Position numbers and translations under genes: made by a program. From the NCBI GenBank assembly GCA_946534285.1, contig CAMNCJ010000007.1, positions 23,219 through 87,218 of the forward strand: a stretch of 64,000 nt of DNA. Direction: 5' to 3'. Shown here piece after piece: positions 1 through 17,722 of the stretch. Under the pieces are notes generated by a model. The model saw only the letters and a program-made list of their open reading frames with translations. It did no database searches and was not told the origin of the DNA. Each line of letters begins with the position of its first letter. The stretch's first letter is position 1. This stretch comes from an uncultured Prevotella sp. GTDB taxonomy: Bacteria > Bacteroidota > Bacteroidia > Bacteroidales > Bacteroidaceae.

Positions 1-1
1 A

Positions 2-895
2 CCCATATGCGGCGAATCGAAAATTAAGTTCAACAAAAAACCATTTTCCATTCGACTCAACAAAATCAATATTGAACATACCAGAAAGACGTATGAATCT
101 CATCAACTTTTTTATGTTATTTGTAATGTCTTCATTTAAAGAAGGATTATTAACCCTACCAAAAGCAGATACGCCTTTATGCCCTCCATGACCACCATCA
201 ATCAACTCGACTATACTTGGAATAATAACATCATTCTGATTGCAATACCCTATGACTCCATATTCTCTATCAATATCTATAAATTGTTCAATTAATAACG
301 GGTTTGGATAACTACGGGACATTACTTCTAACCATTCTTTCAACTCAAGCCTTGAATCACATCTTTTTTGATATTGTTTTGCACTATGATAACAAAGATT
401 TCCTTTAACAAAACATGGATATCTAACACCTTCAGGAATAGTGTACTTACCATTTTCACAAGTTGTTGTCCAAGAATCCACAACATTTAATCCAAATTGT
501 TTTGCTAGTTCTTTTTGTTTTTGCTTATCCATTAATGCAGCAATTGCACCCGCCTGAAAATTAATGTGTGAATATAAGAAAAATGGTTTAAGCTGATCTT
601 GAATAATGTCAACCATACATGCAGAATCATCGTCAACTGACATTATAATTGGTTTATTATTCTCTTCACGTAAATGATTCAATAATAATTTTGCTAAACC
701 TTCAGGATCAAACTTCTTTGCATAATAAAAGCTATCAACATATTTCGAATAGGAATCGAATGGTCTATTATGCTTACCTTCATGTAAAACCAAGACAATC
801 AATTTCACTCTGCTATTTTCCAATTTACCGACAGAGCGTATTAATGCCAAGCGTGAAGCAGGATTACTACCTATTATGATAATACTCTGAAACAT
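2..895 (-). CDS. ATP-grasp (carboxylate-amine ligase-like) protein, truncated by window edge; paralog of 904..2100
   Basis: Not in the ORF track. Read manually from ATG at 895 (MFQSIIIIGSNPASRLALIRSVG); at the window edge it reads GMFNIDFVESNGKWFFVELNFRFAAYG, matching GVFDIDFFQSGNVFYFCEINLRYGGSG of the neighbour. Confidence 0.85.
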   Translation of the reverse strand, partial: MFQSIIIIGSNPASRLALIRSVGKLENSRVKLIVLVLHEGKHNRPFDSYSKYVDSFYYAKKFDPEGLAKLLLNHLREENNKPIIMSVDDDSACMVDIIQDQLKPFFLYSHINFQAGAIAALMDKQKQKELAKQFGLNVVDSWTTTCENGKYTIPEGVRYPCFVKGNLCYHSAKQYQKRCDSRLELKEWLEVMSRSYPNPLLIEQFIDIDREYGVIGYCNQNDVIIPSIVELIDGGHGGHKGVSAFGRVNNPSLNEDITNNIKKLMRFIRLSGMFNIDFVESNGKWFFVELNFRFAAYG

Positions 896-903
896 AAGAT
901 AAA

Positions 904-2100
904 TTAGCAAATTTTATGTTTTATCTTCAACAAAAACCTTTTGATTATTTGCTGCCAGAAAATTGACATATAGGCTCTTTGAGGACTCTTATCTTCCTCA
1001 TCTTTTATAAAAGAAACATCAGATTTTTTCTTAATTTCAAAATATTCCTTTATAGAAATATATCCATTATACAAATCTTCCATACACATTCTTTCATTGA
1101 CATATATGCCTTCACCTGTTATACTGTTGTTAATATTATCAATTGGTGTACCAATAAAAGACTTAACCATCATGGCAGGCAAGTTTACTCCCATTTTAGT
1201 AATAGCATATCCCGAACCACCATAGCGAAGATTTATTTCGCAAAAATAGAAGACATTACCACTCTGAAAGAAATCGATGTCAAAAACACCTATGAAACCC
1301 ATTTTCAGAACAAATTGCTTGAATTGTTCTACCAGTTTTTTTAAATCACCAACAGGCATAACCATTCCTTGACGGGCAATACCTGTATTTGATTCTGATA
1401 CCGCAAGAAATTTCAATATTCCCGGTATACAAACATACTTTCCATCAGAAAAACCCAACAAAGCAAACTCTTGGTCGATTTCCTTATAATCTTCAACAAG
1501 TACTTTAAGAGTTCTGCTTCTATGATGAATGAGATAATCAAGAGATTCTGCAAGTTCTCTCTCGTTGCAACATTTGCGCATACCTCCTTTTCCACCATTC
1601 ATAGTAGCCAACGGTTTGCAGAAACATGGATACTGAATAGACTTGGGTATCGAATAATGTCCGTCAACAATATCAATAGTCTTTCCATCCGCCACATTCA
1701 ACCCTACACTTTTTGCGAGTTTTTTTTGGTTTGTTTTATCCATCCAATATCTAATCGAATCAGGTTTGTTGATAATGTGAGGAAATAGGAAATGTTCATT
1801 TAAAATATCCCGAGCATCATCAATTGCAGCAACCGCATCGTCACTATCAGGAATCAAAACAACCTTCTGCAGTGGATCAGTACATTTATTTAAAAGAATC
1901 CGAATAAGAGACTCATTGTCTTTTCTTTGACAATAGTAAAAATGACTGACGTATTTGCTGAAACAATCTATTGGTTTTTTATGTTTTTTTCCAAAACACA
2001 TAACAATCACCGTCACCTCACATCCTATTTCTGCAACAGAACGGATGATTCCTAAACGAGACGTGAAGCTATGGCCGATGATGATTACTTTTTGTTTCAT
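904..2100 (-). CDS. ATP-grasp fold ligase (carboxylate-amine ligase-like)
   Basis: 398 aa; YPCFCKP...GGKGG, VLVEDY and FDIDFF...FCEINLRYGG ATP-grasp motifs. Confidence 0.8.
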   Translation of the reverse strand: MKQKVIIIGHSFTSRLGIIRSVAEIGCEVTVIVMCFGKKHKKPIDCFSKYVSHFYYCQRKDNESLIRILLNKCTDPLQKVVLIPDSDDAVAAIDDARDILNEHFLFPHIINKPDSIRYWMDKTNQKKLAKSVGLNVADGKTIDIVDGHYSIPKSIQYPCFCKPLATMNGGKGGMRKCCNERELAESLDYLIHHRSRTLKVLVEDYKEIDQEFALLGFSDGKYVCIPGILKFLAVSESNTGIARQGMVMPVGDLKKLVEQFKQFVLKMGFIGVFDIDFFQSGNVFYFCEINLRYGGSGYAITKMGVNLPAMMVKSFIGTPIDNINNSITGEGIYVNERMCMEDLYNGYISIKEYFEIKKKSDVSFIKDEEDKSPQRAYMSIFWQQIIKRFLLKIKHKIC

Positions 2101-2102
2101 TG

Positions 2103-3239
2103 CTATAAACTCAACAAATGTTCAATCCCCACTATTGCGGTTTCTCGATTTTGTTCAGAACGAAGTGTATGAAGTGTAAACATTAAATCTCGCTCATTGT
2201 ATCTGAACAACCATTTATTATAAGCACCAGGGAAAAAGCGCCTTAATCTCAACTTCAACTGAGATGGACTTTTAAATGCTTTTAAGTAAAGTCGGAGTTC
2301 TTTGTCACAAAAACTTTGTAATTGTTTGAACACATAATCATCGTCTAAAACCTTTTTTGAACGTTCACAGAAAGCTGATAAATCTTGATTCGATGCATAA
2401 CGAACGAAAAGGTTGTCAACTGATTCCACCAAATGTTTATTGATACGAATCTGTCCGTTTTCAATTATCAATTCTACAATCAATCCTGTATCCGTCAAAC
2501 CGGGGGCAAAGTTTTTTAACAAGAAGTCACCTTGTCCATAAAGCAAATAAGAGCCTTTATAATATTCTTCACAGCCAACACAATGTGTATGTTGAGCAAG
2601 AATCATATCCGCTCCATTATCTGCCATTCTGTGGAAACGTTTTTTCATTTCTGGTGATGGGTAAGGAAATTTTTCTATTCCACCATGATAGATTACAATC
2701 AAATAATCACATTCCGTTTTAAGTTGTTCTATCTCACGACAGACAATATATTCATCATATAACCATGCTCCTGCTTTATCTTTTGTTGGTTTGTTATACA
2801 TAGTCTCACTAACATTATAAAAACCAATGCGCAGTCCGCCTACTTTCTTTATAAGAGAATGGTCAATTACTCTCTCGTTCTTTCCTGCACCGATATAGTT
2901 GATACCCGCTTCATCAAGCGTTTGCATGGTGTCAATCAGGCCTTGATGACCTCCGTCAGTGGCATGGTTGTTGGCAAGCATACAATAGTCAACTCCTAGT
3001 TTTTTGTATGCCTCAACAGCCGAGGTTGTTGCCACCTTAACCGGACCTGTTTTTCTGCATTTGTCAGGATGGTCGGTCAAGGCTCCTTCAAGATTGCAGA
3101 CACAGAAATCTGCTCCAGAGAACAATTGCGTTATTTCTTTTCCGAACAATGAGTCAATGTCACCCTTTGAAAAGAATGAAACATTTTGTTCGGTAGGGAA
3201 AAAGTCGCCGACAATGATTATGTTATGGTTTTGTTCCAT
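2103..3239 (-). CDS. CapA/PGA_cap family metallophosphoesterase
   Basis: GDF, NLEG, LANNHATD, YHGG.E, QHTH, YGQGDFL motifs. Confidence 0.9.
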   Translation of the reverse strand: MEQNHNIIIVGDFFPTEQNVSFFSKGDIDSLFGKEITQLFSGADFCVCNLEGALTDHPDKCRKTGPVKVATTSAVEAYKKLGVDYCMLANNHATDGGHQGLIDTMQTLDEAGINYIGAGKNERVIDHSLIKKVGGLRIGFYNVSETMYNKPTKDKAGAWLYDEYIVCREIEQLKTECDYLIVIYHGGIEKFPYPSPEMKKRFHRMADNGADMILAQHTHCVGCEEYYKGSYLLYGQGDFLLKNFAPGLTDTGLIVELIIENGQIRINKHLVESVDNLFVRYASNQDLSAFCERSKKVLDDDYVFKQLQSFCDKELRLYLKAFKSPSQLKLRLRRFFPGAYNKWLFRYNERDLMFTLHTLRSEQNRETAIVGIEHLLSL

Positions 3240-3240
3240 A

Positions 3241-3825
3241 TTATTTTTTCAATAGGGTGCGCATTAAAGCTTGGAACTTGGATACCTGAAATTTTATCCA
3301 GCAGTAAAATGATGAATATGGACAACCATTTAACCATTTTGCCATCACTACACTATAATGGTCTTTGCTGGATGCACGGAAGAAGCGGACTGGTTTATAA
3401 CCATTTTTTTTTGCAATTTCCTGACGATGAACATTTTTCGAATGTGTGTCAAACACAAGTGTCTTATAACCAAGGTCTCTCGCCAATTGTTCTCTTTTAC
3501 TCTCTAATAGTTTAAATATCCCTCTGCCAGAATACTCTGGTATTACAGCATCAAAACAAATGTATGCGTAAGGGCCTCTATTATACCAAGTCTTTCCAAT
3601 CTTGTCTCCTATCGCCGCCGTACCGATCAATCTTTTACCATCTAAAGCCACCAACACAACACCTTTTTCTCCAAGCGAATCCTTAATTCTCTCCACTGGC
3701 CATTGATAGTGAGCCATATTGATTCCTTTGGCTCTATTTTCAGCATGGGCTTCAAACAAACATTGCTTGATATCATCCCATGTAACCCAATCGGGTTTTA
3801 CCATTATTTGAATGTTGTCCGCCAT
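3241..3825 (-). CDS. GNAT family N-acyltransferase
   Basis: 194 aa; VIPEYSGRGIFKLL acetyl-CoA-binding motif A. Confidence 0.8.
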   Translation of the reverse strand: MADNIQIMVKPDWVTWDDIKQCLFEAHAENRAKGINMAHYQWPVERIKDSLGEKGVVLVALDGKRLIGTAAIGDKIGKTWYNRGPYAYICFDAVIPEYSGRGIFKLLESKREQLARDLGYKTLVFDTHSKNVHRQEIAKKNGYKPVRFFRASSKDHYSVVMAKWLNGCPYSSFYCWIKFQVSKFQALMRTLLKK

Positions 3826-3848
3826 TCTACATTCGCTTAATTAGCACT

Positions 3849-4925
3849 TCAATCAGGGAACCAAGTATTTGGCCTTGGCCAAAGTTCACGAATAATCCTC
3901 TCTGTATATTCGCCCATGCCTGACTTAAACGCCGATTGGCTCAAGCCTGGATTGGTGTTAAATTCAATAAGCACAGGTTCTCCATCTTCTTGGATGGCCA
4001 CATCCCAACCCACAAGGTTGAAGAAAGGAAGCCTCAAATGAAGACGTTTCACCATCTCAATGGCTTTGTCGTATGACGGCAATTGATAGCCTTCTAATAC
4101 TATACCCGTGTCGGTCTTGTCAACATTATCTGTGCTAAAACCGCCAAAAGCTTCTTTTCCTAGTCTACCTTCCTTGTCGATTGTAGTGCTGATTCCACCG
4201 GCGCATTGGTTGTCGACCACCGAACCATTACGTCCAATGCGAACCACTGAATAGATAATTAGCACCTCCATACCAGAACGATACGACAGTATTCGCATAG
4301 TATTCACAGAGGTAGGATTCAACGCAGCCATTCCTTCATGTTGCCGTACCCAATCCTGTACTAAGAAATCTTTCTTGTACTCCTTAAACAATTGAGCTAC
4401 AGTTTTCCCATTAAGGTCTGTTACACCATTATTAGCACTAAACATCTGTACTCCGTGTCCTTCCGACTGACGCGAAGGTTTGATAATAACCTTTTCCAAA
4501 TTTTGACAAAGAGAAACGGCTTCCTCTTCCGAGACGGGCTTCCCCTCAAAATAATAATAGCCATTCATGTTTTTCAGAATGGAATGAACGATGTTCTCTC
4601 CCGGAAATAGGAAGTCGCACATGTTTTTGTCACCGAAAGCACTCTGAAGACGGTGTTGGTTGGCTTTCGGTACAAGTTCACAATGATAAATGTTGTTGGG
4701 AACATACTCCTTGGTAAAGTACCCAGTGCGCGAATAGAAATACTCATGGCAATAGAGCGGCACCTTCTTACCAATCATATCCATGTAAAAGTCTTGTATT
4801 TCCTTTACTTGTTCTTTCGTAAGTTTGCGGTGATGCTCCAAGTCTTTAAAGTTCTTGGTAATGCGCACCTCCCATTTTTTCATCTCGCGTTTTTTGGCGA
4901 GGCGGTTCATTAATTTACCAAACAT
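3849..4925 (-). CDS. Sugar-transfer-associated ATP-grasp protein (ATPgrasp_ST-like)
   Basis: IIKPS...G.GV, LNPTSVNTMRI, VDNQCAGG, VGWDVAI...PVLIEFN. Confidence 0.88.
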   Translation of the reverse strand: MFGKLMNRLAKKREMKKWEVRITKNFKDLEHHRKLTKEQVKEIQDFYMDMIGKKVPLYCHEYFYSRTGYFTKEYVPNNIYHCELVPKANQHRLQSAFGDKNMCDFLFPGENIVHSILKNMNGYYYFEGKPVSEEEAVSLCQNLEKVIIKPSRQSEGHGVQMFSANNGVTDLNGKTVAQLFKEYKKDFLVQDWVRQHEGMAALNPTSVNTMRILSYRSGMEVLIIYSVVRIGRNGSVVDNQCAGGISTTIDKEGRLGKEAFGGFSTDNVDKTDTGIVLEGYQLPSYDKAIEMVKRLHLRLPFFNLVGWDVAIQEDGEPVLIEFNTNPGLSQSAFKSGMGEYTERIIRELWPRPNTWFPD

Positions 4926-4937
4926 ATCAATGGTTTA

Positions 4938-6092
4938 TTAGTCTCTTTTATTTAATTTTATCGTCCACATCAGCAGATTCCGCCTTGCGTCATGGGTGAG
5001 CAGACGCAATAGTGAATAGTCATTGGTTTTATTCTTTCTTCTGATTTTGTTTTTCCAACAAGTAAGCAATAACTTGGTACATACTTTCAACGATTGAGGA
5101 TGTATCGTCTTGTCGATAATTGTCATCTCCTTCATACCCAAATCATTACATATCTTTTTCAGATATGAGTTGTATTTATCCTCGTTGGTCAAATACTGGC
5201 AAATGGTTTCATTGTGCTTGTTGCGTGCTTCGTCATGGTCGATTTCGATTCCAACATTATCCACATTCCTTGTATTCACCACATCCCAAGTCAGTTTCCC
5301 ACCGGCAATGGTCATCACCACGCAAAGGCCTTCGTACCAATGGGGACGATTGGTGGCGCGATAGTCATAGCCTTCTTTGCTGTTGAACAGGAAGTTGCCC
5401 AGACTATAGAAAATAGGCTTTCCATTGTATTCTTCCCATCCTTGCGGACAATGCGGATGGGCGGCAATTACACCGTCAGCACCATAGTCAATGAAATCGC
5501 GATAACGTGCTACGGTTTCAGGCATTGGGATATCAATATATTCAATACCATCGTGTGGCAGAATGAAAAGATAATCCACTTCCTTTTTTGCCTCTATGAT
5601 GACATGGTTCACTTTGAGGTCGTTAATGTAGGCGCAACCCAATCCATCGTGTTTGGTAATATCGTCAAAAACGCCTGTATAAGCAGCAAACGACAAGCCA
5701 AGGAATCCTATCTTTATCCCATCCACTTCCACTATCTTTGGTTTATAGGCTTCTTCGTATGAACCTGCGCCAAAGGCCTCATCACCCAATGCAGCTTTAG
5801 TTTTCTTAAAACCTTCGTCACCCCAATCGAAAGCGTGGTTATTAGCCAAAGAAAAAACATCGAAACCAAGTCCACGCAAAAAGTCGGGAACATCATCGTG
5901 TTGAAAAAAGCGTTCTCTGCCTTGTGGAGGCATTTTCATTTCAGGTTTCAAAGGCACCTCAAAATTTACCACTTTCACATCACAAGAATTTACCAGACTC
6001 TTCAAGTCATCTGATACACAAATTTTTGAAGTCGAGGGTTTGGAGCAGAAATCGCCTGCAAAAAAAAGACGTATGTTATTCATGAGCGACAA
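4938..6092 (-). CDS. CapA/PGA_cap family metallophosphoesterase
   Basis: AGDF, NFE.PL, LANNHAFDWG, HDG.EY, AHPH, FYSLGNFLF. Confidence 0.9.
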   Translation of the reverse strand: MSLMNNIRLFFAGDFCSKPSTSKICVSDDLKSLVNSCDVKVVNFEVPLKPEMKMPPQGRERFFQHDDVPDFLRGLGFDVFSLANNHAFDWGDEGFKKTKAALGDEAFGAGSYEEAYKPKIVEVDGIKIGFLGLSFAAYTGVFDDITKHDGLGCAYINDLKVNHVIIEAKKEVDYLFILPHDGIEYIDIPMPETVARYRDFIDYGADGVIAAHPHCPQGWEEYNGKPIFYSLGNFLFNSKEGYDYRATNRPHWYEGLCVVMTIAGGKLTWDVVNTRNVDNVGIEIDHDEARNKHNETICQYLTNEDKYNSYLKKICNDLGMKEMTIIDKTIHPQSLKVCTKLLLTCWKNKIRRKNKTNDYSLLRLLTHDARRNLLMWTIKLNKRD

Positions 6093-7245
6093 TCTTTTTC
6101 AAGTGGTTCAGCTTCAAATTGTTGGGCTGACGATACATCTTATATGTCTTTCCTGTTTTCAGCCATGCAAAATAGCAGTCACGAATCTCATTTCTCCACC
6201 CACGACGAATGAAATATTGCCCTGTCCTGTCCCAAAAGTCATTCACCTCAATGACAACAGGCCCTTCATCCGTAATGGCAATATCCCAACCTGCAGCCTT
6301 GCAGTACGGGAATGCTTGTTGGAATTTCTTAACTTCTTCCTTTATCGCTTGCCAATTCTCAATAACAACACCATTTAATTGGCTATCGCTGTCGGGGTGC
6401 TTCTCAATGTCCTTTATATTACGCCAGCCGTCGTATTGGATAGCGTACTTGATTTCACCTGTTTCTGTATCCACACACACGTCCACATTACCACCTCCAC
6501 CTGCGTTGTCGACACACTTGCCAGCACGTCCAATTTTAATAAAAGTGGCAATCACCCGTGCCGAACCATCAGGCCACAATGTGGTCATGAATCTTACTGT
6601 ATTGACCGAAGACTCATTGAATGCAGCAAATTGCTTGGTCTGCTTTACAACACTTTCAAAAATCAAAGCATCCGTACCTAAAACCGATGACAGCAAAAGG
6701 GTTTCACCATCAAAACGGGTCATAATGGCATCGTTATCTCGATATTCAATTGCATTAATAACCCACACATTATCGCCATGTGAACTTTCTGTGGTTTTAA
6801 TAACACAGGATTGCACATTTTTTTGTTTAAGGATGTACAACACGCTATTCAAATCATGTGCATTTTCTGTACAATCAGCATAGCGTGCCTCGGGTTGATA
6901 ATAGCAGTACAATTTCGACTTACGCACACCTGTGTTTTCCAGCAACTTATGGGCCATATATTTGTTTCGGGCAAGCGAGTAGTATTTGATTGGGTTGAGA
7001 TAATCCAAATAAAACCGTTGCTCGTTCAGGCCAAGAAAAGAATTGCGAAACTCCTCATCTCGCTTTTCGAACTCAAACTTGTAATACTCATCTCTTGTGA
7101 GACCTTTGGTCTTATACAATTGTTTGTAATCGCGCACAATAGCATGCCGGACATTTGTTGAATTGTCAATAGTTGCCGCCCATTGCAATAGCGAACGATA
7201 CTCCTGTATTGGTCGGATAAAACGCTTCAATAAATTTTTAAGCAT
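6076..7245 (-). CDS. Sugar-transfer-associated ATP-grasp protein (ATPgrasp_ST-like)
   Basis: FNESSVNTVRF, VDNAGGGG, AGWDIAIT..GPVVIEVN. Confidence 0.88.
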   Translation of the reverse strand: MLKNLLKRFIRPIQEYRSLLQWAATIDNSTNVRHAIVRDYKQLYKTKGLTRDEYYKFEFEKRDEEFRNSFLGLNEQRFYLDYLNPIKYYSLARNKYMAHKLLENTGVRKSKLYCYYQPEARYADCTENAHDLNSVLYILKQKNVQSCVIKTTESSHGDNVWVINAIEYRDNDAIMTRFDGETLLLSSVLGTDALIFESVVKQTKQFAAFNESSVNTVRFMTTLWPDGSARVIATFIKIGRAGKCVDNAGGGGNVDVCVDTETGEIKYAIQYDGWRNIKDIEKHPDSDSQLNGVVIENWQAIKEEVKKFQQAFPYCKAAGWDIAITDEGPVVIEVNDFWDRTGQYFIRRGWRNEIRDCYFAWLKTGKTYKMYRQPNNLKLNHLKKIVAHE

Positions 7246-7257
7246 AAGAGAATATTA

Positions 7258-8010
7258 TTATAGTCCTGTTCTTGGATAGTTGTATTTTTTATCTAATTCT
7301 TTCTCCTGTTTTTTATCATAAATTCGGCGCAACCCTGTCGCTTTCACGGTAGCAGGACAGCCCGCCAACATACTATAAGAAGGTTCATTTGAAAAATCTT
7401 TATTGACCAAACTGTTAGAGGCGACAATAGTATTATCAGGAATTACGGCTCCTTTAGAGACTGTAGAACGATTACCCAGCCAGACACGGTTACCTATAAT
7501 AACTGGTGAAGAAAGAGTCTTTATTTCATTGTTGCGATTCAAAAGTTCTATATAATGGAAACTTGTATCATATATCTGACAATCCCAAGCTATTCGACAA
7601 GCATATCCGATTCTGATATGTTCAAAGCAGAAGATCTTTGTGTTTGAACCAATCTTTGTTATGTTGGTTTCTTCTGGTTTAGAATTGATTTCCAGCAATG
7701 CATTCTTGGCAACAAGAATGTAACTGCCCCTAAAAATTCGAACAGGTGCATCAAATACTATAGTTCCATTAATTGTCCAAATATTGTTTTGAATACTGGT
7801 GTCAACATATATATCCTTAGGACCAACCTTAATCTTACCCGTATAAATAGATCCTTTTATTTCCACTTTCCCTTTCAACGAGCGGAAATCCGTCTTACCG
7901 TAAAACAAAATTGGCAGTTTTCTTGCTTGCTTAAAAGGCAGCATCTTGAAATTGAACTCGATGGTCTTTATCAAGTTGCACTTCAACAGTTCTTTTATCT
8001 TCTTTCTCAT
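7258..8010 (-). CDS. Hexapeptide-repeat (left-handed beta-helix) acyltransferase
   Basis: PVIIGNRVWLGNRSTVSKGAVIPDNTIVASNSLV. Confidence 0.85.
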   Translation of the reverse strand: MRKKIKELLKCNLIKTIEFNFKMLPFKQARKLPILFYGKTDFRSLKGKVEIKGSIYTGKIKVGPKDIYVDTSIQNNIWTINGTIVFDAPVRIFRGSYILVAKNALLEINSKPEETNITKIGSNTKIFCFEHIRIGYACRIAWDCQIYDTSFHYIELLNRNNEIKTLSSPVIIGNRVWLGNRSTVSKGAVIPDNTIVASNSLVNKDFSNEPSYSMLAGCPATVKATGLRRIYDKKQEKELDKKYNYPRTGL

Positions 8011-8015
8011 ATTAC

Positions 8016-9077
8016 CTAATGTAATAATCTGTTCTTTATCTTCCTGACAATTTGCAGGGACTTGTATTTTATCAACAACCGTCTTTTTGCCAAGTCTTTT
8101 TCCATCTTTCTCGGCAAATCACATTGCGAGACAATGTTTTCGGGGGATGAATGTACGTATCCAATGCCCGGTATTGTCTTTTCTCCATCAAGATTCAGTG
8201 TAACATAACATCCATAACGCGAAATCGGGTTCCACACCTGCCGAATGGGTGCCTCTATCGGGAACGGATAGCCGACAACATCTTTTATCTTCGACAAGTC
8301 CTCGCTTAACTCAGGATACCAGATTGGACGGGGAGGTTGCATATAAAAGTCTGGGAACAGGAAATTCCCCATACTGAAACATACGGGCTTGCCTTTGAGC
8401 TTCAAGAAAGGCTGAATCTGATGAGTATGGCTGCCCAAAATAGCATCAGCACCTGCTTCCACCATCTTTTTTGCCATAGAAACACATTCGGGCAACGGCT
8501 CATAGCGATATTCCCTGCCCCAATGGGGCATGACAATCACTTTGTCGTATTTTTGTTTGGCTTGCTTTATATCTTTAGTAACTCTATCAATATCCAACGG
8601 ATTGATTCCAGCCTTGTTTGCCTCAGCCAGTTCCACGTATCCCAAATATTTATTACCATACATACAATAGGCGAGAATCGCCACACTCAATCCGTCTTTT
8701 TCAATAACGGCAGGTCGAGAAGCTTCTTCTATATTCACACCAGCACCGCAATGCTTAATCCCGTTTTTCTCCAAAATGCTGATGGTGTTTTTAAGGCCTT
8801 CTTCTCCCAAATCCCATACATGATTATTGGCAAGTGAAACCACATCGAAACCCATCTCCTTCACTCTGAAAAAATCCTCGTTTCTCGCATATATTATATT
8901 TTGCCTTCCTGCAATTTTTACAGAATCATAAGGAAGGTTCGTGCCAATGGCCGATTCGAGTGTGCCAATCCTGAAATCGAAATCCTTCAAGAAAGATTTT
9001 AATTCTGCCGTAATATAATTGTCTTGATAAGGCAAAACGCCTCCAGGCATTATATCTCCACAAAAAAACAAATTCAT
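8016..9077 (-). CDS. CapA/PGA_cap family metallophosphoesterase
   Basis: CGDIM, TLES, LANNHVWDLG, PHWG.EY, GSHTH, FSMGNFLF. Confidence 0.9.
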   Translation of the reverse strand: MNLFFCGDIMPGGVLPYQDNYITAELKSFLKDFDFRIGTLESAIGTNLPYDSVKIAGRQNIIYARNEDFFRVKEMGFDVVSLANNHVWDLGEEGLKNTISILEKNGIKHCGAGVNIEEASRPAVIEKDGLSVAILAYCMYGNKYLGYVELAEANKAGINPLDIDRVTKDIKQAKQKYDKVIVMPHWGREYRYEPLPECVSMAKKMVEAGADAILGSHTHQIQPFLKLKGKPVCFSMGNFLFPDFYMQPPRPIWYPELSEDLSKIKDVVGYPFPIEAPIRQVWNPISRYGCYVTLNLDGEKTIPGIGYVHSSPENIVSQCDLPRKMEKDLAKRRLLIKYKSLQIVRKIKNRLLH

Positions 9078-10576
9078 GCTACAATTCTTTTATTGTCCTT
9101 TTTATCCCAAAACTTGAGTTTTGCAGGTATGATGCTTAAAAAATAGGTATATGATTCCGGCTTAAAGATTAAAGACCAGCCCATATATATCATCAAATAA
9201 ATGGCTGTTTTAAGTGCTCCATCAAGATACATATTCAAGTGCAGATAATGTATGCCGAAGAAAGCGATACCAGCCGCCAACAACGAAGCAACTCCCACAG
9301 GTAGAATATCCAACAATTGTTGCGTCCATTTATACCCAATATGCTTAGATACTAACGATATGTTTACAAAATACGAAAACCATGCATTAATGATAACACC
9401 AACCAGCAGTCCTTTCATTCCGAATACTAATAAGCCTCCTACCATAGCACATAGTCCTATTATCCGTTTAACAATGGTCCAAACCAGCATCGTTTTACTT
9501 TTTCCAATTGCTGAAATAGTCTGCAAATTTACTGATTGTAAACAAGCAGCAAGTCCAGCAACACATAACACCTGAAAATACGGAATACTTTGTATCCATC
9601 TATCTGAATATAATAGAATAAATAAAGGTTTAGCAGTCAACATGAGAATAAACATCATCGGAAATGTAATATAAGAAATTGTGGTCGTCAACCTTTTGAT
9701 CATATTAATCATTAATGTCTTGTTGTCTTGCACTTCAGCATACAGTGGATAAGTCACTTGTGTCATTATTGATGAAATTGTATGAGAAGCTAGCCTTTCC
9801 GTCCCTAAAGCCTTTGAATAATACCCTAAAGTTGATGGATTATAAACTTTGCCTATAACTAACCCAGTCAACTGAGTTGAAAAACGTTCAACTAAATGCG
9901 TCAAAAACATATAAAATCCAAAACCAAACAGTTCCTGGAAAGACTTCCAAGAGAAGACCCATTGCGGCCGCCATTTCACGTAGAACCAAAAAACCAGGGA
10001 AGGAATAGCGCCACCAATAAGGGTTTGAGCAACCAATGACCACACACCAAATCCATGGTAAGCCATAATAATTGTAACAGAAAGAGCAATGATAGCTGTT
10101 CCAACAGATACGATGGAAAGTAATTTGAAATTGAGTTTTTTCTTTAACTGGTTACGTTGTATGACATTAAGGGCATATATAAAGAGAATTAAGCCCTCAA
10201 CACGTAGAACATCACATAGCAAAGGAATTTTGTAAAAGCGAGATATAGCAGGAGCACTAACAAACAAAATGATATACATGAAAGCAGCCATACCGATATT
10301 CCACCAAAAGATGGTAGAATAATCCTCTTGTGTAGGTCTCTTTTTTTGTATCAATGCAGAACCAAAACCGCCATCAATAAAAGCATCGGCCAAGACAATA
10401 AAAATGGAAAGCATTCCGATACAACCATAGTCGTATGGAGTAAGCAAGCGTGCCAAAATTATACCCGAGATGAACTGTATGCCCATTCTCGAGTACTTTT
10501 GCAAGGCGGTCCATACCATGCCTGCTGCGGCTTTCTGCTTTAGATTGTTTTGTGGCATTTTACTTACCTTCTGCAA
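9074..10576 (-). CDS. wzx: Wzx-type polysaccharide flippase
   Basis: 500 aa, many hydrophobic segments; LARLLTPYDYG, D.GFGSALIQKK...EDYSTIFWWN typical of the WzxC-like family. Confidence 0.9.
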   Translation of the reverse strand: MQKVSKMPQNNLKQKAAAGMVWTALQKYSRMGIQFISGIILARLLTPYDYGCIGMLSIFIVLADAFIDGGFGSALIQKKRPTQEDYSTIFWWNIGMAAFMYIILFVSAPAISRFYKIPLLCDVLRVEGLILFIYALNVIQRNQLKKKLNFKLLSIVSVGTAIIALSVTIIMAYHGFGVWSLVAQTLIGGAIPSLVFWFYVKWRPQWVFSWKSFQELFGFGFYMFLTHLVERFSTQLTGLVIGKVYNPSTLGYYSKALGTERLASHTISSIMTQVTYPLYAEVQDNKTLMINMIKRLTTTISYITFPMMFILMLTAKPLFILLYSDRWIQSIPYFQVLCVAGLAACLQSVNLQTISAIGKSKTMLVWTIVKRIIGLCAMVGGLLVFGMKGLLVGVIINAWFSYFVNISLVSKHIGYKWTQQLLDILPVGVASLLAAGIAFFGIHYLHLNMYLDGALKTAIYLMIYMGWSLIFKPESYTYFLSIIPAKLKFWDKKDNKRIVA

Positions 10577-11771
10577 AATCTTTCAAATAGGCAAATCTCG
10601 ATGTCAAATGGCCTTCCTTCAAAATCATGGAACGATCAATCACATCGGAATGTTCACCCTTAAGCATAGGCTCAAACACATGTTTGGTCAACATTTCACC
10701 AAAATAGGCACTGGTATCAATGGCCAAGGCGTTCGGGCATGTGTCCACAGCCATTACTGTGATGTTGTCGGGCGAAGAGAATGCTGGCTCTTCTTTCTTA
10801 CTGACAGGATTGAAATCATAGTAGGGTTCAGCATGCGTTGCAGGACGGACTGTTGATTTAACACTTCCACAAATGTCGCATGTGATATCTCCTATCATTT
10901 TAATAGGTAAATCGTATTTGGTGAAATCGCCTTGTTCAAGATAAACGGGAGCCTTGGGATCCCAATAGTGACATGGGATATAAATATCAGTATGTTTCGC
11001 AAACTTTATGAAATCACTTACGTATTCCTCTGGATGCTCACGGAAATGTTTTCTAACATACGGTTTTCCATCCTTGTGCTTGACAAGTTCTTCTGGCGAC
11101 GCACGATGAAAAGAAATATAATCGATAGGTTCATTAGACAAGAACTCATCCATACTTAGTTCCTCTGCCCGACAACATTCCCTCATCACATAGGTTGCTC
11201 CTTGCGCCACCCTACCATTTCCTGTTATCAGTATCTTCACTTTAGGTAATTTTACAACAGTCAGTATGTTTCTCAATTCTGACAATGTAAATGATTTCGT
11301 GGGTTTCGGCAAAATATCCTTGCCTTCCCTCAGGAAATATCCCCGAAGCGTATAATAAACCCCAACGACTCCAGCCCACCAACCAAAGGCACAAACACGC
11401 TCATTATTCTCATCTACAAGATATTCGTAATCTGAGAATGTTATGCTTTTATTCATGAAAGCCTGCAACAAAGGGCGGTTGTATTCCTGCATCTTGGCAA
11501 TATGGCCGAAGAAGAAATAGTGTTTGTTCGGTATCAGACTTTCAATCTTAGCTTCCTTGATACCAAAGAGAACATCAGCATCGCTGACATCATTCACCAC
11601 CTCTACGCCTTCCGCCCGATATTCGTCATCTGAGTATGCGCGGACATCGCTTGTCTGCACCATAATCTGGTGCTGGGGAAATTGTCTGTTCAACTCAGCC
11701 ACCTGCTTGGGGACAAGTGCCACACGGTTATCAACCGGGGTCTTGGTTTCTTTGATTAGAACTATTTTCAT
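10560..11771 (-). CDS. Lysine-ketoglutarate reductase / saccharopine dehydrogenase-like NAD(P) oxidoreductase (AlaDh/PNT fold)
   Basis: ETK...DNRVAL.P, FGIKE, YFFFGHIAK.Q.YN..LL, DYEYLVD....RV.AFG..AG, TGNGRVAQGA, DITCD..GS. Confidence 0.8.
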   Translation of the reverse strand: MKIVLIKETKTPVDNRVALVPKQVAELNRQFPQHQIMVQTSDVRAYSDDEYRAEGVEVVNDVSDADVLFGIKEAKIESLIPNKHYFFFGHIAKMQEYNRPLLQAFMNKSITFSDYEYLVDENNERVCAFGWWAGVVGVYYTLRGYFLREGKDILPKPTKSFTLSELRNILTVVKLPKVKILITGNGRVAQGATYVMRECCRAEELSMDEFLSNEPIDYISFHRASPEELVKHKDGKPYVRKHFREHPEEYVSDFIKFAKHTDIYIPCHYWDPKAPVYLEQGDFTKYDLPIKMIGDITCDICGSVKSTVRPATHAEPYYDFNPVSKKEEPAFSSPDNITVMAVDTCPNALAIDTSAYFGEMLTKHVFEPMLKGEHSDVIDRSMILKEGHLTSRFAYLKDFAEGK

Positions 11772-11777
11772 TGTATT

Positions 11778-12188
11778 CTACTTTATTTTGCTATACTCCC
11801 TTAGAAGTGTTGAAGAAATACCTTCCGTTCTGGGAACAACAACAACTTCCTTACCATGGTTCTTGCACCATTCAACAGCGCTTTGGAATCCAGCATGGTT
11901 TTGGTCAGGGCCTTTGGCAAAAACGTCGAAATCTATCCTTTGAATATCTTTGTCGATATCTTTATAAATCACAACCTCATCAACATACTTAATGGCACTT
12001 ACCATATACATCCTTTCGTCTGTACTATATACCATCTGAGTACCTGGCTTGTACTTGAGAATGCAATCTCCATCCTGGACAGCCACAATCAAATGGTCAC
12101 CAAGATCTTTAGCATGCTTGAACAAAAGAATATGCCCGATATGAAGCATGTCGTAGACCCCTACTGTTAGCACTTTCTTCATACTCAT
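11778..12188 (-). CDS. Cytidylyltransferase (TagD/glycerol-3-phosphate CT-like), first gene of operon
   Basis: G.YDMLHIGH (HxGH), YVDEV and RTEGISST motifs; 136 aa. Confidence 0.88.
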   Translation of the reverse strand: MSMKKVLTVGVYDMLHIGHILLFKHAKDLGDHLIVAVQDGDCILKYKPGTQMVYSTDERMYMVSAIKYVDEVVIYKDIDKDIQRIDFDVFAKGPDQNHAGFQSAVEWCKNHGKEVVVVPRTEGISSTLLREYSKIK

Positions 12189-12674
12189 ATCACTTAATTG
12201 TTATTTGAGAAAAACGGACCACTATTTTCACAAACCGCAGTCCTAAAAATAGAAACTTGATTATTAATATAAAATATAGATTTCTTTGAGATACTTACAA
12301 TTCATTTCTTTGACAGTGTATGTCTGCTTGAATGGAATTCTGACTGGAGGCTACGTCTTGCAGGGATATAATACTTTTCTTCCCTCCCAGTATGTAGAAC
12401 TTGGAGAGAAAAACAATCTGTGGCAGCAACGCCCACTAATCCCTAAAAGCCAGACTGCCTCCGCTTCAGGATACTCTTTAAGGAGCATCCGCAGATGGTT
12501 CTGCTTCTGATGAGAAAAGCAAATGGAGGTAATACGCCCACCCACTGTATGATTCCGAAAAAACGCTATTGTGCCACCTATTTCCCAGAAAACAAAGTGG
12601 ATTGGCACATATCACTGTTATTTTATATTAATTATAATCAATCTCCAAAATACTGCTTTTCTATTTTTGCGCTG

Positions 12675-12705
12675 CAAAATTATAAAAAAAGAATGAGAAG
12701 ACAAA
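12675..12705 (-). promoter_or_regulatory. Bacteroidota sigma-A promoter for the leftward ATP-grasp/CapA operon
   Basis: Minus strand TTTG (12702-12705), 19-bp spacer, TAATTTTG (12675-12682). Confidence 0.65.
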
Positions 12706-12845
12706 ATTTTTCAACTAATATCTTATTGAGAATCCTATAAGTCATCCTATATAAACGTGAGTTCGGGGTAAGAGAATGAGAAACAGGAAGAACTCACAGA
12801 CGGGTTTCCTTGACTAACAGAACAAGGAGAACCCTATCCCCGTAT

Positions 12846-13000
12846 CCCTGTGCTCTCTGTGGTATGGTAACATGCATTCATATATTTTTGTTTTAACCAC
12901 CGAGAACACCGAGTTCACAGAGTTTTTATTATTATTATAATATTTCTCTGTGTCCTCTGTGCACTCTGTGGTTGTTAATTTGTATATTTATTATTCATCT
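12846..13000. repeat. Palindromic 9-nt-period repeat (CACAGAGnn/CTCGGTGnn); inverted copy of 15709-15861
   Basis: AACCACCGAG-AACACCGAG-TTCACAGAG, AT-rich loop, CTCTGTGTC-CTCTGTGCA-CTCTGTGGTT. Confidence 0.9.
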
Positions 13001-13059
13001 AACTCTTGAGTTCTATACCTCTTATTATTTCGTGGCCAAAAATGCCATTTTTCGCCATT

Positions 13060-13480
13060 AAACGACATGCTGACGATTTGAAAAATTGCGACAAAAGCCT
13101 GTTCACATTTTCATTCAAAATAGAAATGGTTTTTGGGCGAAACGAGCATTGAAAACGAGAAAATGTAAAGAATCACTACCATGAGGCACATTTCTTCACG
13201 CAAAACCTATGCTTTTACATCTCAAAAGATATGGTTTTACCCTTCAAAAACTATGGTTTCACTGCCCAAAAACTATGGTTTTGCGACACAAAACCTATGC
13301 TTTTTTCAGCAGTAATGTGATTTCTTCGTTCAAGGGGAAACCGTTTTCATTGTAATCAATTATTAGTCAACAACTTGCAGGAAGTGCTTCAAAACTCGTG
13401 TATTTCGCCCCAGTTGCACGTTTGTCATCAGCACCGCCCGTATGAGAGGCTTTCATTCGGATTTTTCATGACAATATCAT
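13060..13480 (+). repeat. Dispersed ~420-bp non-coding element, copy 1, containing five 22-bp direct repeats (13201-13306)
   Basis: Colinear with the reverse complement of 59650-60071 (AAACGACATGCTGA...GAAAATGTAAAGA...CAAAACCTATGCTTTT...TGATTTCTTCGTT...CGTATGAGAG...ATGACAAT). Confidence 0.88.
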
Positions 13481-13612
13481 GCATAGGGAATGTTCTGTCC
13501 GCTGAGTACAGAACCCTTGGTCCAATAAGGCTATCGCGAAAATGAAACTGAATGTTTTCACTACCTTGTCAAGAAATATCAAATAATATTTTTATAAGTA
13601 GAAAAAAATGCG

Positions 13613-13620
13613 TATTTTTG
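13613..13620 (+). promoter_or_regulatory. -7 promoter box upstream of the GHMP kinase
   Basis: TATTTTTG about 50 bp before the ATG. Confidence 0.55.
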
Positions 13621-13671
13621 CAGAAAATATGATGAAAACAGGAATTTGTCAACATTATAGCATTAAAAAAT

Positions 13672-14898
13672 ATGACACAAATGAATGATTTGTTCCAGGC
13701 ATACCGTACGTTTTTCGGCACGGGCGATGCACTTTACCGCATGTTCTCACCCTACCGTATCTGCCCCCTCGGGGCACATGTGGACCATCAGCATGGATGG
13801 GTGACGGGCTTTGCCTTCGACAGCGGCATCGAGTTCTTGTTCTCTGAGACAGAAACGGGCAAGGTGGAAATGGCTTCCCTGTCGTTTGAAGGACTGATGA
13901 CATTTAATGTGCAGCGGCCCATTGACGAGCAACAGAGCAACTGGGGAGACTATTTGCGCGGTGCCGCATGGGCATTGCAGCAGGATTTCCAACTGAAGAA
14001 AGGGGTGCGCGGTATCGTGAAAGGCTCCATGCCTATCGGCGGTCTGTCGTCATCGGCAGCGCTGCTGTGCGGTTTCGTGATGGCACTGGCAAAGGTGAAC
14101 CATCTGGAACTGGACAAGATGCAAGTGATTCACTATGCATCGCGCGCAGAAAGGGAATACGTGGGACTGAACAATGGTATTCTGGACCAGGCTTGCGTGG
14201 TGCTCTGCGAAGCAGACAAACTGCTGTTTCTCGACACAAAGAGTCAGCAATACGAACTGATTCCTTTCGCTTCGGAGAAGGGGAAAGACGGAACGAGCGG
14301 TGACGGAACGAGCGTGCTGCCATTCAAATTCGGCATTTTTTTCAGCGGCGTGACACGCAAACTGACAGGAACGGACTACAACCTGCGGGTATCGGAATGC
14401 AAAACAGCCGCTTGGATCATGCAGGCCTATGAGGATATTCCACTGAAAGAACTGCAAGACACACGGCTGCGTGATGTGGAGGAGACCGTTTTCCTGAAAC
14501 ATGAGAAGGATATGCCGGAGCGTTTTGCACGCAGAGCACGCCATTTCTATACGGAATGTGACCGCGTGAAAGACGGGGTGAAAGCGTGGAAGGCTGGCGA
14601 CATCGAGCGTTTCGGACAGTTTGTCTTCGAGAGTTGCGAGAGTTCGATGAACAACTACGAATGTGGTTCTCCTGAACTGATTGCTCTTTATAAGATCATG
14701 AGGGAGACGGACGGCATCTACGGAGGACGTTTCTCGGGCGCAGGATTCAAGGGTGCCTGCATTGCCTTGGTAGATCCCAGCAAGGAAGAGAGTATCAAAC
14801 AGCATGTGGAGGAGGAATACCTGAAGCAATATCCTCAATATAAGGATAGTTTCCATGCGTATTTCTGTAGTCCGGCCCACGGAGTGGAATTTCTATAA
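13672..14898 (+). CDS. GHMP sugar kinase, galacturonokinase-like (galactokinase family)
   Basis: PYRICPLGAHVDHQ, GGLSSSAA, GLNNGILDQ, DYNLRVSEC, NYECGSPEL, GGRFSGAGFKG. Confidence 0.85.
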   Translation: MTQMNDLFQAYRTFFGTGDALYRMFSPYRICPLGAHVDHQHGWVTGFAFDSGIEFLFSETETGKVEMASLSFEGLMTFNVQRPIDEQQSNWGDYLRGAAWALQQDFQLKKGVRGIVKGSMPIGGLSSSAALLCGFVMALAKVNHLELDKMQVIHYASRAEREYVGLNNGILDQACVVLCEADKLLFLDTKSQQYELIPFASEKGKDGTSGDGTSVLPFKFGIFFSGVTRKLTGTDYNLRVSECKTAAWIMQAYEDIPLKELQDTRLRDVEETVFLKHEKDMPERFARRARHFYTECDRVKDGVKAWKAGDIERFGQFVFESCESSMNNYECGSPELIALYKIMRETDGIYGGRFSGAGFKGACIALVDPSKEESIKQHVEEEYLKQYPQYKDSFHAYFCSPAHGVEFL

Positions 14899-16681: not shown

Positions 16682-17722
16682 ATGAAAATCTTAGTTACTG
16701 GCGCAGCCGGATTCATCGGCTCGAAACTTATGTACATGCTCGCCCTTCGTGGTGATGATGTGGTAGGCATTGACAATATCAATGACTACTACAATCCTTT
16801 GCTCAAGTATGGCAGGTTGGCGGAGTGCGGTATAGAACAGAAAGACAACCATTTTGAATGGAATGTTCCTGTTCAGAGCAGTCTGTTTGCCAACTGCCGC
16901 TTTGTGAGAATGGCTATCGATGACAAGGAGTCACTCGACCGCTTATTTGAAAAAGAGCATTTCGACAAGGTGGTGAACCTCGCTGCACAGGCTGGTGTGC
17001 GCTATAGCATCACCAACCCTTACAGTTACTTACAAAGCAACTTGGTCGGGTTCCTCAACATTCTGGAAGCCTGCAGGAACAACCAGATTCGTCATCTGAT
17101 CTACGCCTCGTCGAGTTCTGTCTATGGCATGAATACCAAGGTGCCCTACAGTGAAGCAGACAAGGTGGACTCCCCCGTCAGCCTCTATGCCGCATCGAAA
17201 AAGAGCAACGAACTGATGGCGCATGCCTACTCGAAACTTTACGGATTCGCAACAACAGGACTGCGTTTCTTCACCGTCTATGGTCCATGGGGCCGTCCAG
17301 ACATGTCTCCCATGCTTTTTGCCTCCGCCATTTCCAAGGGAGAACCAATCAAAGTATTCAATCACGGAGACATGATTCGTGACTTCACCTATATCGATGA
17401 CATTGCTGAGGGTACGATTCATGTAATTGATCATCAGCCCGTTGCTGAAGAATGTCCCAACAACGTTCCTTACAAGGTGTATAATATCGGCTGTTCGAAT
17501 CCTGTAAAACTGATGGATTTTATCAGCGAGATAGAACAGGCTTATGGCAAGGAAGCCGAAAAAGTGTTTCTCCCCATGCAGCCGGGGGATGTTTATCAGA
17601 CCAATGCGAATACGGAACGTCTGGAAGAAGAGTGCGGTTACAAGCCACATTGGTCGCTGCATGACGGTATCCAGGAGTTTATGAAGTGGTATAAGAGCGA
17701 CAAAAACCCGCTCCGCCCATAG
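16682..17722 (+). CDS. NAD-dependent epimerase, UDP-glucuronate 4-epimerase family (Uge/Cap1J/WbnF-like)
   Basis: GAAGFIG, LAAQAGVRYS, YAASKKSNELMAH, RFFTVYGPWGRPDM, QPGDV. Confidence 0.9.
   Translation: MKILVTGAAGFIGSKLMYMLALRGDDVVGIDNINDYYNPLLKYGRLAECGIEQKDNHFEWNVPVQSSLFANCRFVRMAIDDKESLDRLFEKEHFDKVVNLAAQAGVRYSITNPYSYLQSNLVGFLNILEACRNNQIRHLIYASSSSVYGMNTKVPYSEADKVDSPVSLYAASKKSNELMAHAYSKLYGFATTGLRFFTVYGPWGRPDMSPMLFASAISKGEPIKVFNHGDMIRDFTYIDDIAEGTIHVIDHQPVAEECPNNVPYKVYNIGCSNPVKLMDFISEIEQAYGKEAEKVFLPMQPGDVYQTNANTERLEEECGYKPHWSLHDGIQEFMKWYKSDKNPLRP

Follow-up and report, generated by a model that had tools for sequence, protein, structure and literature searches.

The LKR-like gene and its polysaccharide locus

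The DNA analyzed here, referred to as the window, is a stretch of 64,000 nt from an uncultured Prevotella sp. (GCA_946534285.1, contig CAMNCJ010000007.1, forward-strand positions 23,219-87,218). On its reverse strand it carries a polysaccharide operon, the second gene of which encodes P0001, a 403-residue protein of the lysine-ketoglutarate reductase (LKR) type, i.e. related to an enzyme of amino acid metabolism. The gene and the features that accompany it are as follows.

10560..11771, reverse strand: LKR-like NAD(P)-dependent reductase P0001 (403 aa); ATG start, open frame; member of the derived polysaccharide-locus clade described below
11778..12188, reverse strand: TagD-like cytidylyltransferase, operon gene 1 (CTP_transf_like, 3.9e-17; glycerol-3-phosphate cytidylyltransferase, 1.7e-20, below cut-off)
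9074..10576, reverse strand: Wzx-type flippase (flippase profiles; ATG 10558 the likely start)
8016..9077, reverse strand: CapA-like protein (PGA_cap) 1 (Pfam)
7258..8010, reverse strand: hexapeptide-repeat acyltransferase (Pfam, NCBIfam)
6076..7245, reverse strand: ATP-grasp ligase ATPgrasp_ST 1 (sugar-transfer-associated type), candidate amidoligase (Pfam)
4938..6092, reverse strand: CapA-like protein (PGA_cap) 2 (Pfam)
3849..4925, reverse strand: ATP-grasp ligase ATPgrasp_ST 2, candidate amidoligase (Pfam)
3241..3825, reverse strand: GNAT acetyltransferase (Pfam)
2103..3239, reverse strand: CapA-like protein (PGA_cap) 3 (Pfam)
904..2100, reverse strand: ATP-grasp ligase 3, carbamoyl-phosphate-synthase-like type (Pfam, NCBIfam)
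2..910, reverse strand: ATP-grasp ligase 4, extending past the window edge (the locus goes on along the contig)
16682..17722, forward strand: NAD-dependent epimerase, approximately 5 kb from the LKR-like gene and 61% identical to the epimerase of a related locus, L013

The cytidylyltransferase stop codon lies 6 nt ahead of the LKR-like ATG. At the other junction, wzx either overlaps the LKR-like gene by 17 bp, if it starts at TTG 10576, or follows it after a 1-nt gap, if it starts at the in-frame ATG 10558. The flippase profiles begin aligning at the Met encoded by ATG 10558, and for this reason the true wzx start is likely 1 nt past the LKR stop. The tight operon coupling claimed in an earlier note on this DNA therefore stands, with the 17-bp overlap that it cited applying only to the TTG start.

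The operon runs in the order cytidylyltransferase, LKR-like gene, Wzx, PGA_cap, hexapeptide acyltransferase, ATPgrasp_ST, PGA_cap, ATPgrasp_ST, GNAT, PGA_cap and two ATP-grasp genes, then LicD, a TupA-like ATP-grasp and Wzy, followed by three glycosyltransferases, an initiating sugar-phosphate transferase, a PglD-like acyltransferase, MaoC, an HpcH-like gene, an unknown gene, and FemAB-like, DegT and PglF-like dehydratase genes. Judged by its gene content it is a complete Wzx/Wzy locus with five predicted amide-ligase-fold enzymes, so that its glycan probably carries many amino acid substituents. The G+C content of the operon (window 1-12200) is 0.33-0.42, compared with mostly 0.42-0.50 to its right (14000-36000), consistent with a horizontally exchanged island.

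The assignment of P0001 is based on searches against Pfam, NCBIfam and solved structures, on HMMER alignments to the human and yeast enzymes, and on an AlphaFold2 model, built on 40 sequences and compared with known folds by Foldseek. The five LKR-type blocks quoted in the earlier note are all present in P0001 (FFFGHIAK at residue 86, DYEYLVD at 114, AFGWWAG at 128, TGNGRVAQGA at 183 and DITCD at 295), which is well beyond chance. The N-terminal region matches AlaDh_PNT_N (PF05222; 9.3e-21). Among solved structures, the LKR domain of human AASS ranks first (1.9e-28) and yeast saccharopine dehydrogenase (SDH; 3.6e-8) second, with alanine dehydrogenase (AlaDH) reaching only ~1e-3. The model (mean predicted local distance difference test score 95.1) gives the same ranking, with template modelling (TM) scores of 0.85 to human LOR, 0.72 to the yeast SDH and 0.65 to AlaDH. 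Thus P0001 is, by its N-terminal domain and two-lobe Rossmann fold, a member of the LKR / saccharopine dehydrogenase (L-lysine-forming) family in the AlaDH/PNT superfamily, and the LKR identity proposed earlier is backed by both sequence and fold. That P0001 might be a plain AlaDH, the alternative named in the earlier note, was rejected: the AlaDH model TIGR00518 reaches 32.4 bits (cut-off 391.85), aligning only with the N-terminal 117 residues, and the fold is closer to LOR. No Pfam match to the Octopine_DH C-terminal domain (PF02317) was found in P0001, which would thus be an opine synthase by its chemistry, outside the classical octopine/nopaline dehydrogenase family.

The glycine-rich dinucleotide motif occupies residues 183-192, with G184, G186 and G191 invariant. 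At the end of β-strand B of the Rossmann fold, the column that bears on cofactor preference has S, C, L or D in different members of the clade, and N185 occupies the position of human Thr224, which contacts the NADPH 2'-phosphate (PMC13763937).

Active site, clade and distribution

Residue roles were taken from the substrate-bound human AASS structure (PMC13763937), in which the functions of Lys93/His111, Arg39, Arg146, Gln116, Lys114 and Asp358 are described, and mapped to P0001 via the HMMER alignment.

K72 and H90: human Lys93 and His111; catalytic pair (yeast K77/H96)
R16 and R125: human Arg39 and Arg146; bind two of the saccharopine carboxylates
Q95: human Gln116; coordination of the third carboxylate
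K93: human Lys114; near the third carboxylate
D343: human Asp358; latch partner of Lys114

All seven residues are invariant in the 96 sequences aligned, i.e. 21/21 from polysaccharide loci, 62/62 housekeeping and 13/13 distant LKRs or bifunctional LKR-SDH enzymes. Retention of the LKR catalytic machinery argues that the chemistry of P0001 is almost certainly the reductive condensation of an amine with a 2-oxo acid. Retention of all three carboxylate ligands, in turn, argues for a dicarboxylic 2-oxo acid, making a saccharopine-type tricarboxylate a likelier product than a carboxyethyl compound such as Nε-(1-carboxyethyl)lysine. The latter, formed with pyruvate, was the product suggested by the earlier note and is disfavored by the invariance of the equivalents of Arg39, Arg146 and Gln116 together with Lys114.

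The human AASS LKR/LOR (EC 1.5.1.8; PDB 8E8U, 8DDA) is the best match in both sequence and fold, with its catalytic, saccharopine-ligand and latch residues conserved in P0001. By contrast with it, P0001, which is ~24% identical, stands alone with no fused or linked SDH, is encoded in a glycan operon and has nine otherwise conserved positions replaced. Yeast Lys1 (NAD+, L-lysine-forming; EC 1.5.1.7; PDB 2Q99, 3UH1) has the same fold and only ~20% identity, and acts in lysine biosynthesis. Its K13, R18, K77, E78, H96, K99, E122, R131 and D319 are identical in P0001, and E16 is replaced by Asp (D14); K13, E16, E78 and E122 are thus matched in addition to the residues listed above. In the loop that follows D319, Lys1 has DHLPSLLP and P0001 has DTCPNALA.

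Approximately nine positions specific to the polysaccharide-locus clade depart from residues conserved in every other LKR, housekeeping and bifunctional.

Position 84: H in the clade, T in other LKRs
Position 89: G in the clade, S in other LKRs
Position 112: F in the clade, L in other LKRs
Position 140: Y in the clade, N, D or E in other LKRs
Position 313: H in the clade, I in other LKRs
Position 344: T in the clade, N in other LKRs
Position 345: C in the clade, L in other LKRs
Position 348: A in the clade, E in other LKRs
Position 350: A in the clade, P in other LKRs

In sequence, G89 neighbors the catalytic H90, and T344 and C345 neighbor D343. The signature argues for a functional shift, apparently in specificity or regulation, around an unchanged catalytic core.

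A scan of one genome per prokaryote species gave 80 loci with related genes, to which six from close metagenomic homologs were added, and the flanks of all of these were probed with the window's own locus proteins. In a maximum-likelihood tree the polysaccharide-locus copies form one clade (Shimodaira-Hasegawa-like approximate likelihood-ratio test (SH-aLRT) support 99), separate from the housekeeping clades of Bacteroidota; the context label requires a single change on the tree, and none of 500 shuffles did as well (0/500). The ordinary LKR-SDH bifunctionals P0250 and P0270 were used as the outgroup. The comparison with housekeeping Bacteroidota LKRs, called for in the earlier note, thus places P0001, the sole LKR of its genome, apart from the housekeeping copies and within the polysaccharide-locus clade. 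The housekeeping LKR-like genes (from Cytophagales, Marinilabiliales and others; uncharacterized) are 40-47% identical to P0001, equal in length and have the same active-site residues, and they lie in a different setting and in separate clades. Pfam spot checks of their loci found unrelated neighbors, e.g. ribulose-phosphate epimerase (rpe), sigma-70 and Rho.

Every locus with at least 52% identity, together with L027, has Wzx, ATPgrasp_ST, TupA-like ATP-grasp or PGA_cap adjoining the LKR-like gene, whereas none of the 61 housekeeping loci (40-46% identity) gave Wzx, ATP-grasp or PGA_cap neighbors with the window-protein probes. An ATP-grasp gene occurs within 10 kb in 19/22 clade loci compared with 0/61 housekeeping loci (Fisher p = 6e-16). 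The gene recurs beside ATP-grasp genes in over 20 further polysaccharide loci, so that its absence from such loci, named in the earlier note as a ground for refutation, does not apply. A Pfam count over the 126 genes that lie no more than 3.7 kb from 21 clade copies elsewhere gave 15 ATPgrasp_ST, 14 Wzx-type flippases, 8 TupA and 7 PGA_cap. The LKR-like gene directly adjoins wzx in ~13 loci and is flanked by TupA-like genes in ~14. The smallest arrangements are LKR-TupA (L018), LKR-TupA-TupA (L024, L027) and LKR-Wzx-TupA (L016, L021), and a genome of the same order found by a separate route, G541, has Wzx-LKR-ATPgrasp_ST-TupA.

The gene is accessory rather than housekeeping. The host genome (3.3 Mb, 93% complete) has one LKR homolog only, and it is itself the one genome with such a homolog among 151 sampled from the family. 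Across the order 230/401 genomes have an LKR homolog, in identity tiers of 40-47% and 32-36%, and G541 (56% identity) is the only other genome in the score range of P0001. The assignment as a housekeeping LKR was thus rejected by distribution, phylogeny and synteny. The remark in the earlier note that no partner SDH is nearby also holds: no SDH domain is fused within P0001, Sacchrp_dh families are outside the 25 commonest Pfam families among the 126 neighbor genes, and the sole Sacchrp_dh-type gene (Sacchrp_dh_C) of the host lies on another contig. There it stands beside recA, and its only NCBIfam match is to carboxynorspermidine synthase (390 bits against a cut-off of 800); for this reason no saccharopine breakdown route appears recognizable in the host genome. 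A classical saccharopine pathway was rejected, since its SDH partner is unrecognized in the host and is not among the commonest neighbors. As to the ligases, ATPgrasp_ST homologs occur in 16/151 family genomes, 15 of these 16 having no LKR. The clade LKR-like gene is almost never found without a ligase, whereas the ligases are mostly found without LKR, a one-sided dependence that fits an optional add-on module whose product requires the ligase.

Several further features of these loci were observed. In the window an ATP-grasp gene follows each of the three PGA_cap genes (2103-9077, reverse strand) within two genes; the PGA_cap/ATPgrasp_ST pairing recurs in many related loci, and the PGA_cap proteins show a weak NCBIfam match to the lasso-peptide C-terminal Trp epimerase MslH. 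From this similarity, the PGA_cap proteins might epimerize a newly attached amino acid. At the far end of the locus (contig C7, ~12500-14700, which is L008:7550-9658) are genes for an HpcH/citrate-lyase-beta-like protein, a MaoC dehydratase, a 343-aa protein free of Pfam matches and a FemAB-like protein, which may constitute an acyl-CoA-derived or tRNA-dependent decoration branch. In L003 and L004 (8855-9976 in each) a gene with Octopine_DH and ApbA Pfam matches lies immediately upstream of the LKR-like gene, which is followed by YdjC, PGA_cap and ATPgrasp_ST; its NCBIfam matches are weak and to ketopantoate-reductase-type models only, and the protein may act as another reductase in the pathway to this side chain. 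L002 (8531-21209; Prevotella sp. E9-3, CP091786.1), whose LKR-like protein is 75% identical to P0001, has three wzx genes in 12 kb, two directly preceding PGA_cap, with the LKR-like gene accompanying the first of the three only, and looks like tandem or mosaic glycan modules. In L022 (9992-11206) the LKR-like gene is present as two open reading frames (matches at 9992 and 10538) in an otherwise intact Wzx/PGA_cap/ATP-grasp locus, reflecting either a pseudogene or an assembly error. P0166 (1052 aa), which falls among the housekeeping copies in the tree, combines an LKR-like domain with a peptidase M3 domain; it is either a real fusion or the result of a missed stop codon, and was set aside as uninformative with respect to function.

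Proposed function and alternatives

The proposal to which we give even odds is that an LKR-type enzyme has been recruited from amino acid metabolism to the decoration of a surface glycan, its opine product being amide-linked to the repeat unit by way of an ATP-grasp amidoligase. We infer the substrates, product, acceptor and order of steps from the observed fold, active-site residues, clade, synteny and accessory distribution. P0001 would convert a primary amine, a 2-oxo acid and NAD(P)H into a secondary-amine opine. With the catalytic Lys/His pair and the full set of three carboxylate ligands in place, P0001 would most likely join 2-oxoglutarate or some other dicarboxylic oxo acid to L-lysine or a closely related diamino acid, the product being saccharopine or a compound much like it. 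This opine would end as an amide on the repeat unit through the action of a co-encoded ATP-grasp amidoligase, most plausibly on the C6 carboxylate of galacturonic acid (GalA) or glucuronic acid (GlcA), and Wzx would flip the unit after its decoration. Either order is conceivable, namely ligation of a finished opine or ligation of lysine followed by its alkylation.

A uronic acid acceptor is suggested by L013, in which the order is UDP-glucose 6-dehydrogenase, LKR, epimerase, Wzx, PGA_cap and TupA, so that the LKR-like gene lies between the dehydrogenase and an epimerase similar to that in the window. Solved relatives of the window epimerase include 6ZL6 and MoeE5, which we take to be UDP-glucuronate 4-epimerases (the search output gives no function), and the enzyme encoded at 16682..17722 probably supplies UDP-GalA.

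The individual steps have precedents. The Lactococcus lactis N5-(1-carboxyethyl)-L-ornithine synthase (EC 1.5.1.24), of the AlaDH/PNT superfamily, couples a diamino acid to a 2-oxo acid and releases the opine in free form; it uses pyruvate, has ~313 residues and is not known to take part in glycan synthesis. The logic is that proposed for P0001. Opines amide-linked to bacterial polysaccharides are known from Providencia O-antigens, i.e. Nε-(1-carboxyethyl)-L-lysine on GalA in P. rustigianii O14 and alanopine on an amino sugar in P. alcalifaciens O35 (PMC10609480). By contrast with the dicarboxylic oxo acid suggested by the P0001 ligands, these are pyruvate-derived, and they come from Enterobacterales.

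The amines used by Campylobacter jejuni Cj1438 are ethanolamine phosphate and serinol phosphate. The TupA-like ATP-grasp domain at the C terminus of this protein is reported to amidate the C6 carboxylate of GlcA in the capsule, the product named being the serinol amide (PMC11800379); it is a capsule-locus precedent for the amide-forming step. No LKR-like partner is described for it, unlike the situation in the P0001 locus.

Of what the earlier note proposed, i.e. an opine attached to GalA or GlcA by an ATP-grasp ligase, the general idea is thus favored by the clade and the ATP-grasp synteny, and the carboxyethyl-lysine product is not. Several considerations weigh against the proposed recruitment to glycan decoration. 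L019, L023 and L025 have no ATP-grasp gene in the DNA covered, the L019 contig ending shortly after wzx and the L025 LKR-like gene lying at a contig start. The neighboring ATP-grasp families are broad and mostly LKR-free, and co-location is no proof that the ligases use the product. Given the nine signature substitutions, the substrates may differ from lysine and 2-oxoglutarate. The trees are quick maximum-likelihood searches with SH-aLRT support only, and the use of window-derived probes is a weakness of the context scan. The literature search returned no paper on an opine in polysaccharides of these bacteria, nothing that links LKR or saccharopine genes to polysaccharide loci, and nothing on the genetics of carboxyethyl-lysine O-antigens, with no biosynthetic enzyme named.

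The alternatives differ in what the enzyme would act on. It may be that ligation comes first, an ATP-grasp enzyme amidating the uronic acid, as a UDP-sugar or in the lipid-linked unit, with lysine, and the LKR-like enzyme then alkylating the ε-amine. The tight coupling of the gene to wzx and the ligases would fit this order, as would G89, T344, C345 and A348, which lie beside catalytic residues and could accommodate a bulky Nα-acyl group, and the intact ligands K93 and Q95 are as expected for a free α-carboxylate. However, the signature is common to a phage branch of the clade (see below) that has no sugar context, and nothing separates this order from that with free substrates; we regard it as unlikely. 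Less probable still is N-carboxyalkylation of an amino sugar to an N-(dicarboxyalkyl) derivative, the substrate being, e.g., the 4-amino-4,6-dideoxyhexose expected from the DegT and PglF-like genes. The DegT aminotransferase and PglF-like dehydratase are encoded in the same locus, and L002 and L003 each have a YdjC deacetylase-like gene after the LKR-like gene, but DegT is outside the 25 commonest neighbor families and YdjC occurs twice only, whereas ATP-grasp is recurrent; further, K93 and Q95, which are ligands for an amino acid α-carboxylate, are invariant in the clade.

Two alternatives dispense with a glycan-bound opine, and both are assigned a very low probability. Ammonia-using dehydrogenases exist in the AlaDH/PNT superfamily, and P0001 could conceivably be an amino acid dehydrogenase that uses ammonia or runs oxidatively, providing the ligases with an unusual amino or oxo acid rather than an opine. 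The poor score with the AlaDH model (32 bits against a cut-off of 392) and the invariance of the LKR-type ligands R125, K93 and Q95, which are not known from the AlaDH active site, make this a slim prospect. Slimmer again is the view that P0001 is an ordinary catabolic LKR that merely lies beside a polysaccharide locus. Every LKR catalytic and substrate residue is kept and P0001 is the sole LKR homolog of its genome; against this, the clade is apart from the housekeeping copies, the synteny with ATP-grasp and Wzx extends over more than 20 species, the intra-operon junctions are of 6 nt and 1 nt, 150/151 family genomes lack the gene, and no glutamate-forming SDH is recognized in the genome.

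A phage branch and wider implications

The proposed recruitment to glycan decoration may have a counterpart in phages, where a gene of this clade stands in a cassette together with an amidoligase gene. Nested in the derived clade (SH-aLRT 99, 32 rows) is a branch (SH-aLRT 99) of LKR-like proteins to which P0272, P0202 and P0211 belong. The genes of these three are located in phage or prophage DNA and share a conserved block comprising DUF488-N3a, a ~672-aa fusion, ParB_N and the LKR-like gene.

L094:5292-9218, phage or prophage block
L095:4780-9254, phage or prophage block
L096:4822-9215, phage or prophage block

The ~672-aa fusion combines Amidoligase_2 with phage DAM-like and phage GNAT-like domains. 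Behind the block, L094 and L096 have large terminase and portal genes; L095 has its portal gene upstream and gave no recognizable terminase. The phage-branch proteins share the clade signature and keep the catalytic Lys/His pair and both Arg residues, but their amine-side ligands, those of the third carboxylate, are changed, e.g. K93E/Q95K in P0149. Phage Mu encodes a GNAT-superfamily enzyme, Mom, that acylates DNA at adenine N6 (PMC7824862), and the phage block may therefore be a new DNA-base hypermodification cassette, in which an LKR-like enzyme would again work with an amidoligase. A broader view, which is tentative, is that there exists an unrecognized clade of LKR-derived opine synthases always paired with an amide ligase. 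In gut and rumen Bacteroidales these enzymes would place a saccharopine-like secondary amine with several charges on capsule uronic acids, which could amount to a new zwitterionic surface motif; in the phage branch, with its altered amine-side ligands, they would act with the Amidoligase_2/DAM-like/GNAT-like fusion protein in the hypermodification of DNA bases.

If the proposed role of P0001 in glycan decoration is correct, gut and rumen Bacteroidales would have capsules bearing opine amino acids, which in the literature searched are not described for the phylum. A saccharopine-like group would add several carboxylates and a charged secondary amine. Zwitterionic Bacteroides polysaccharides affect host immune signaling; capsule charge, recognition by phage and antibodies, and possibly host immune signaling could thus change with such a decoration. 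The clade signature is a ready marker for loci of this type in metagenomes, and P0001 would be a clear case of an enzyme of primary metabolism turned to glycan tailoring.

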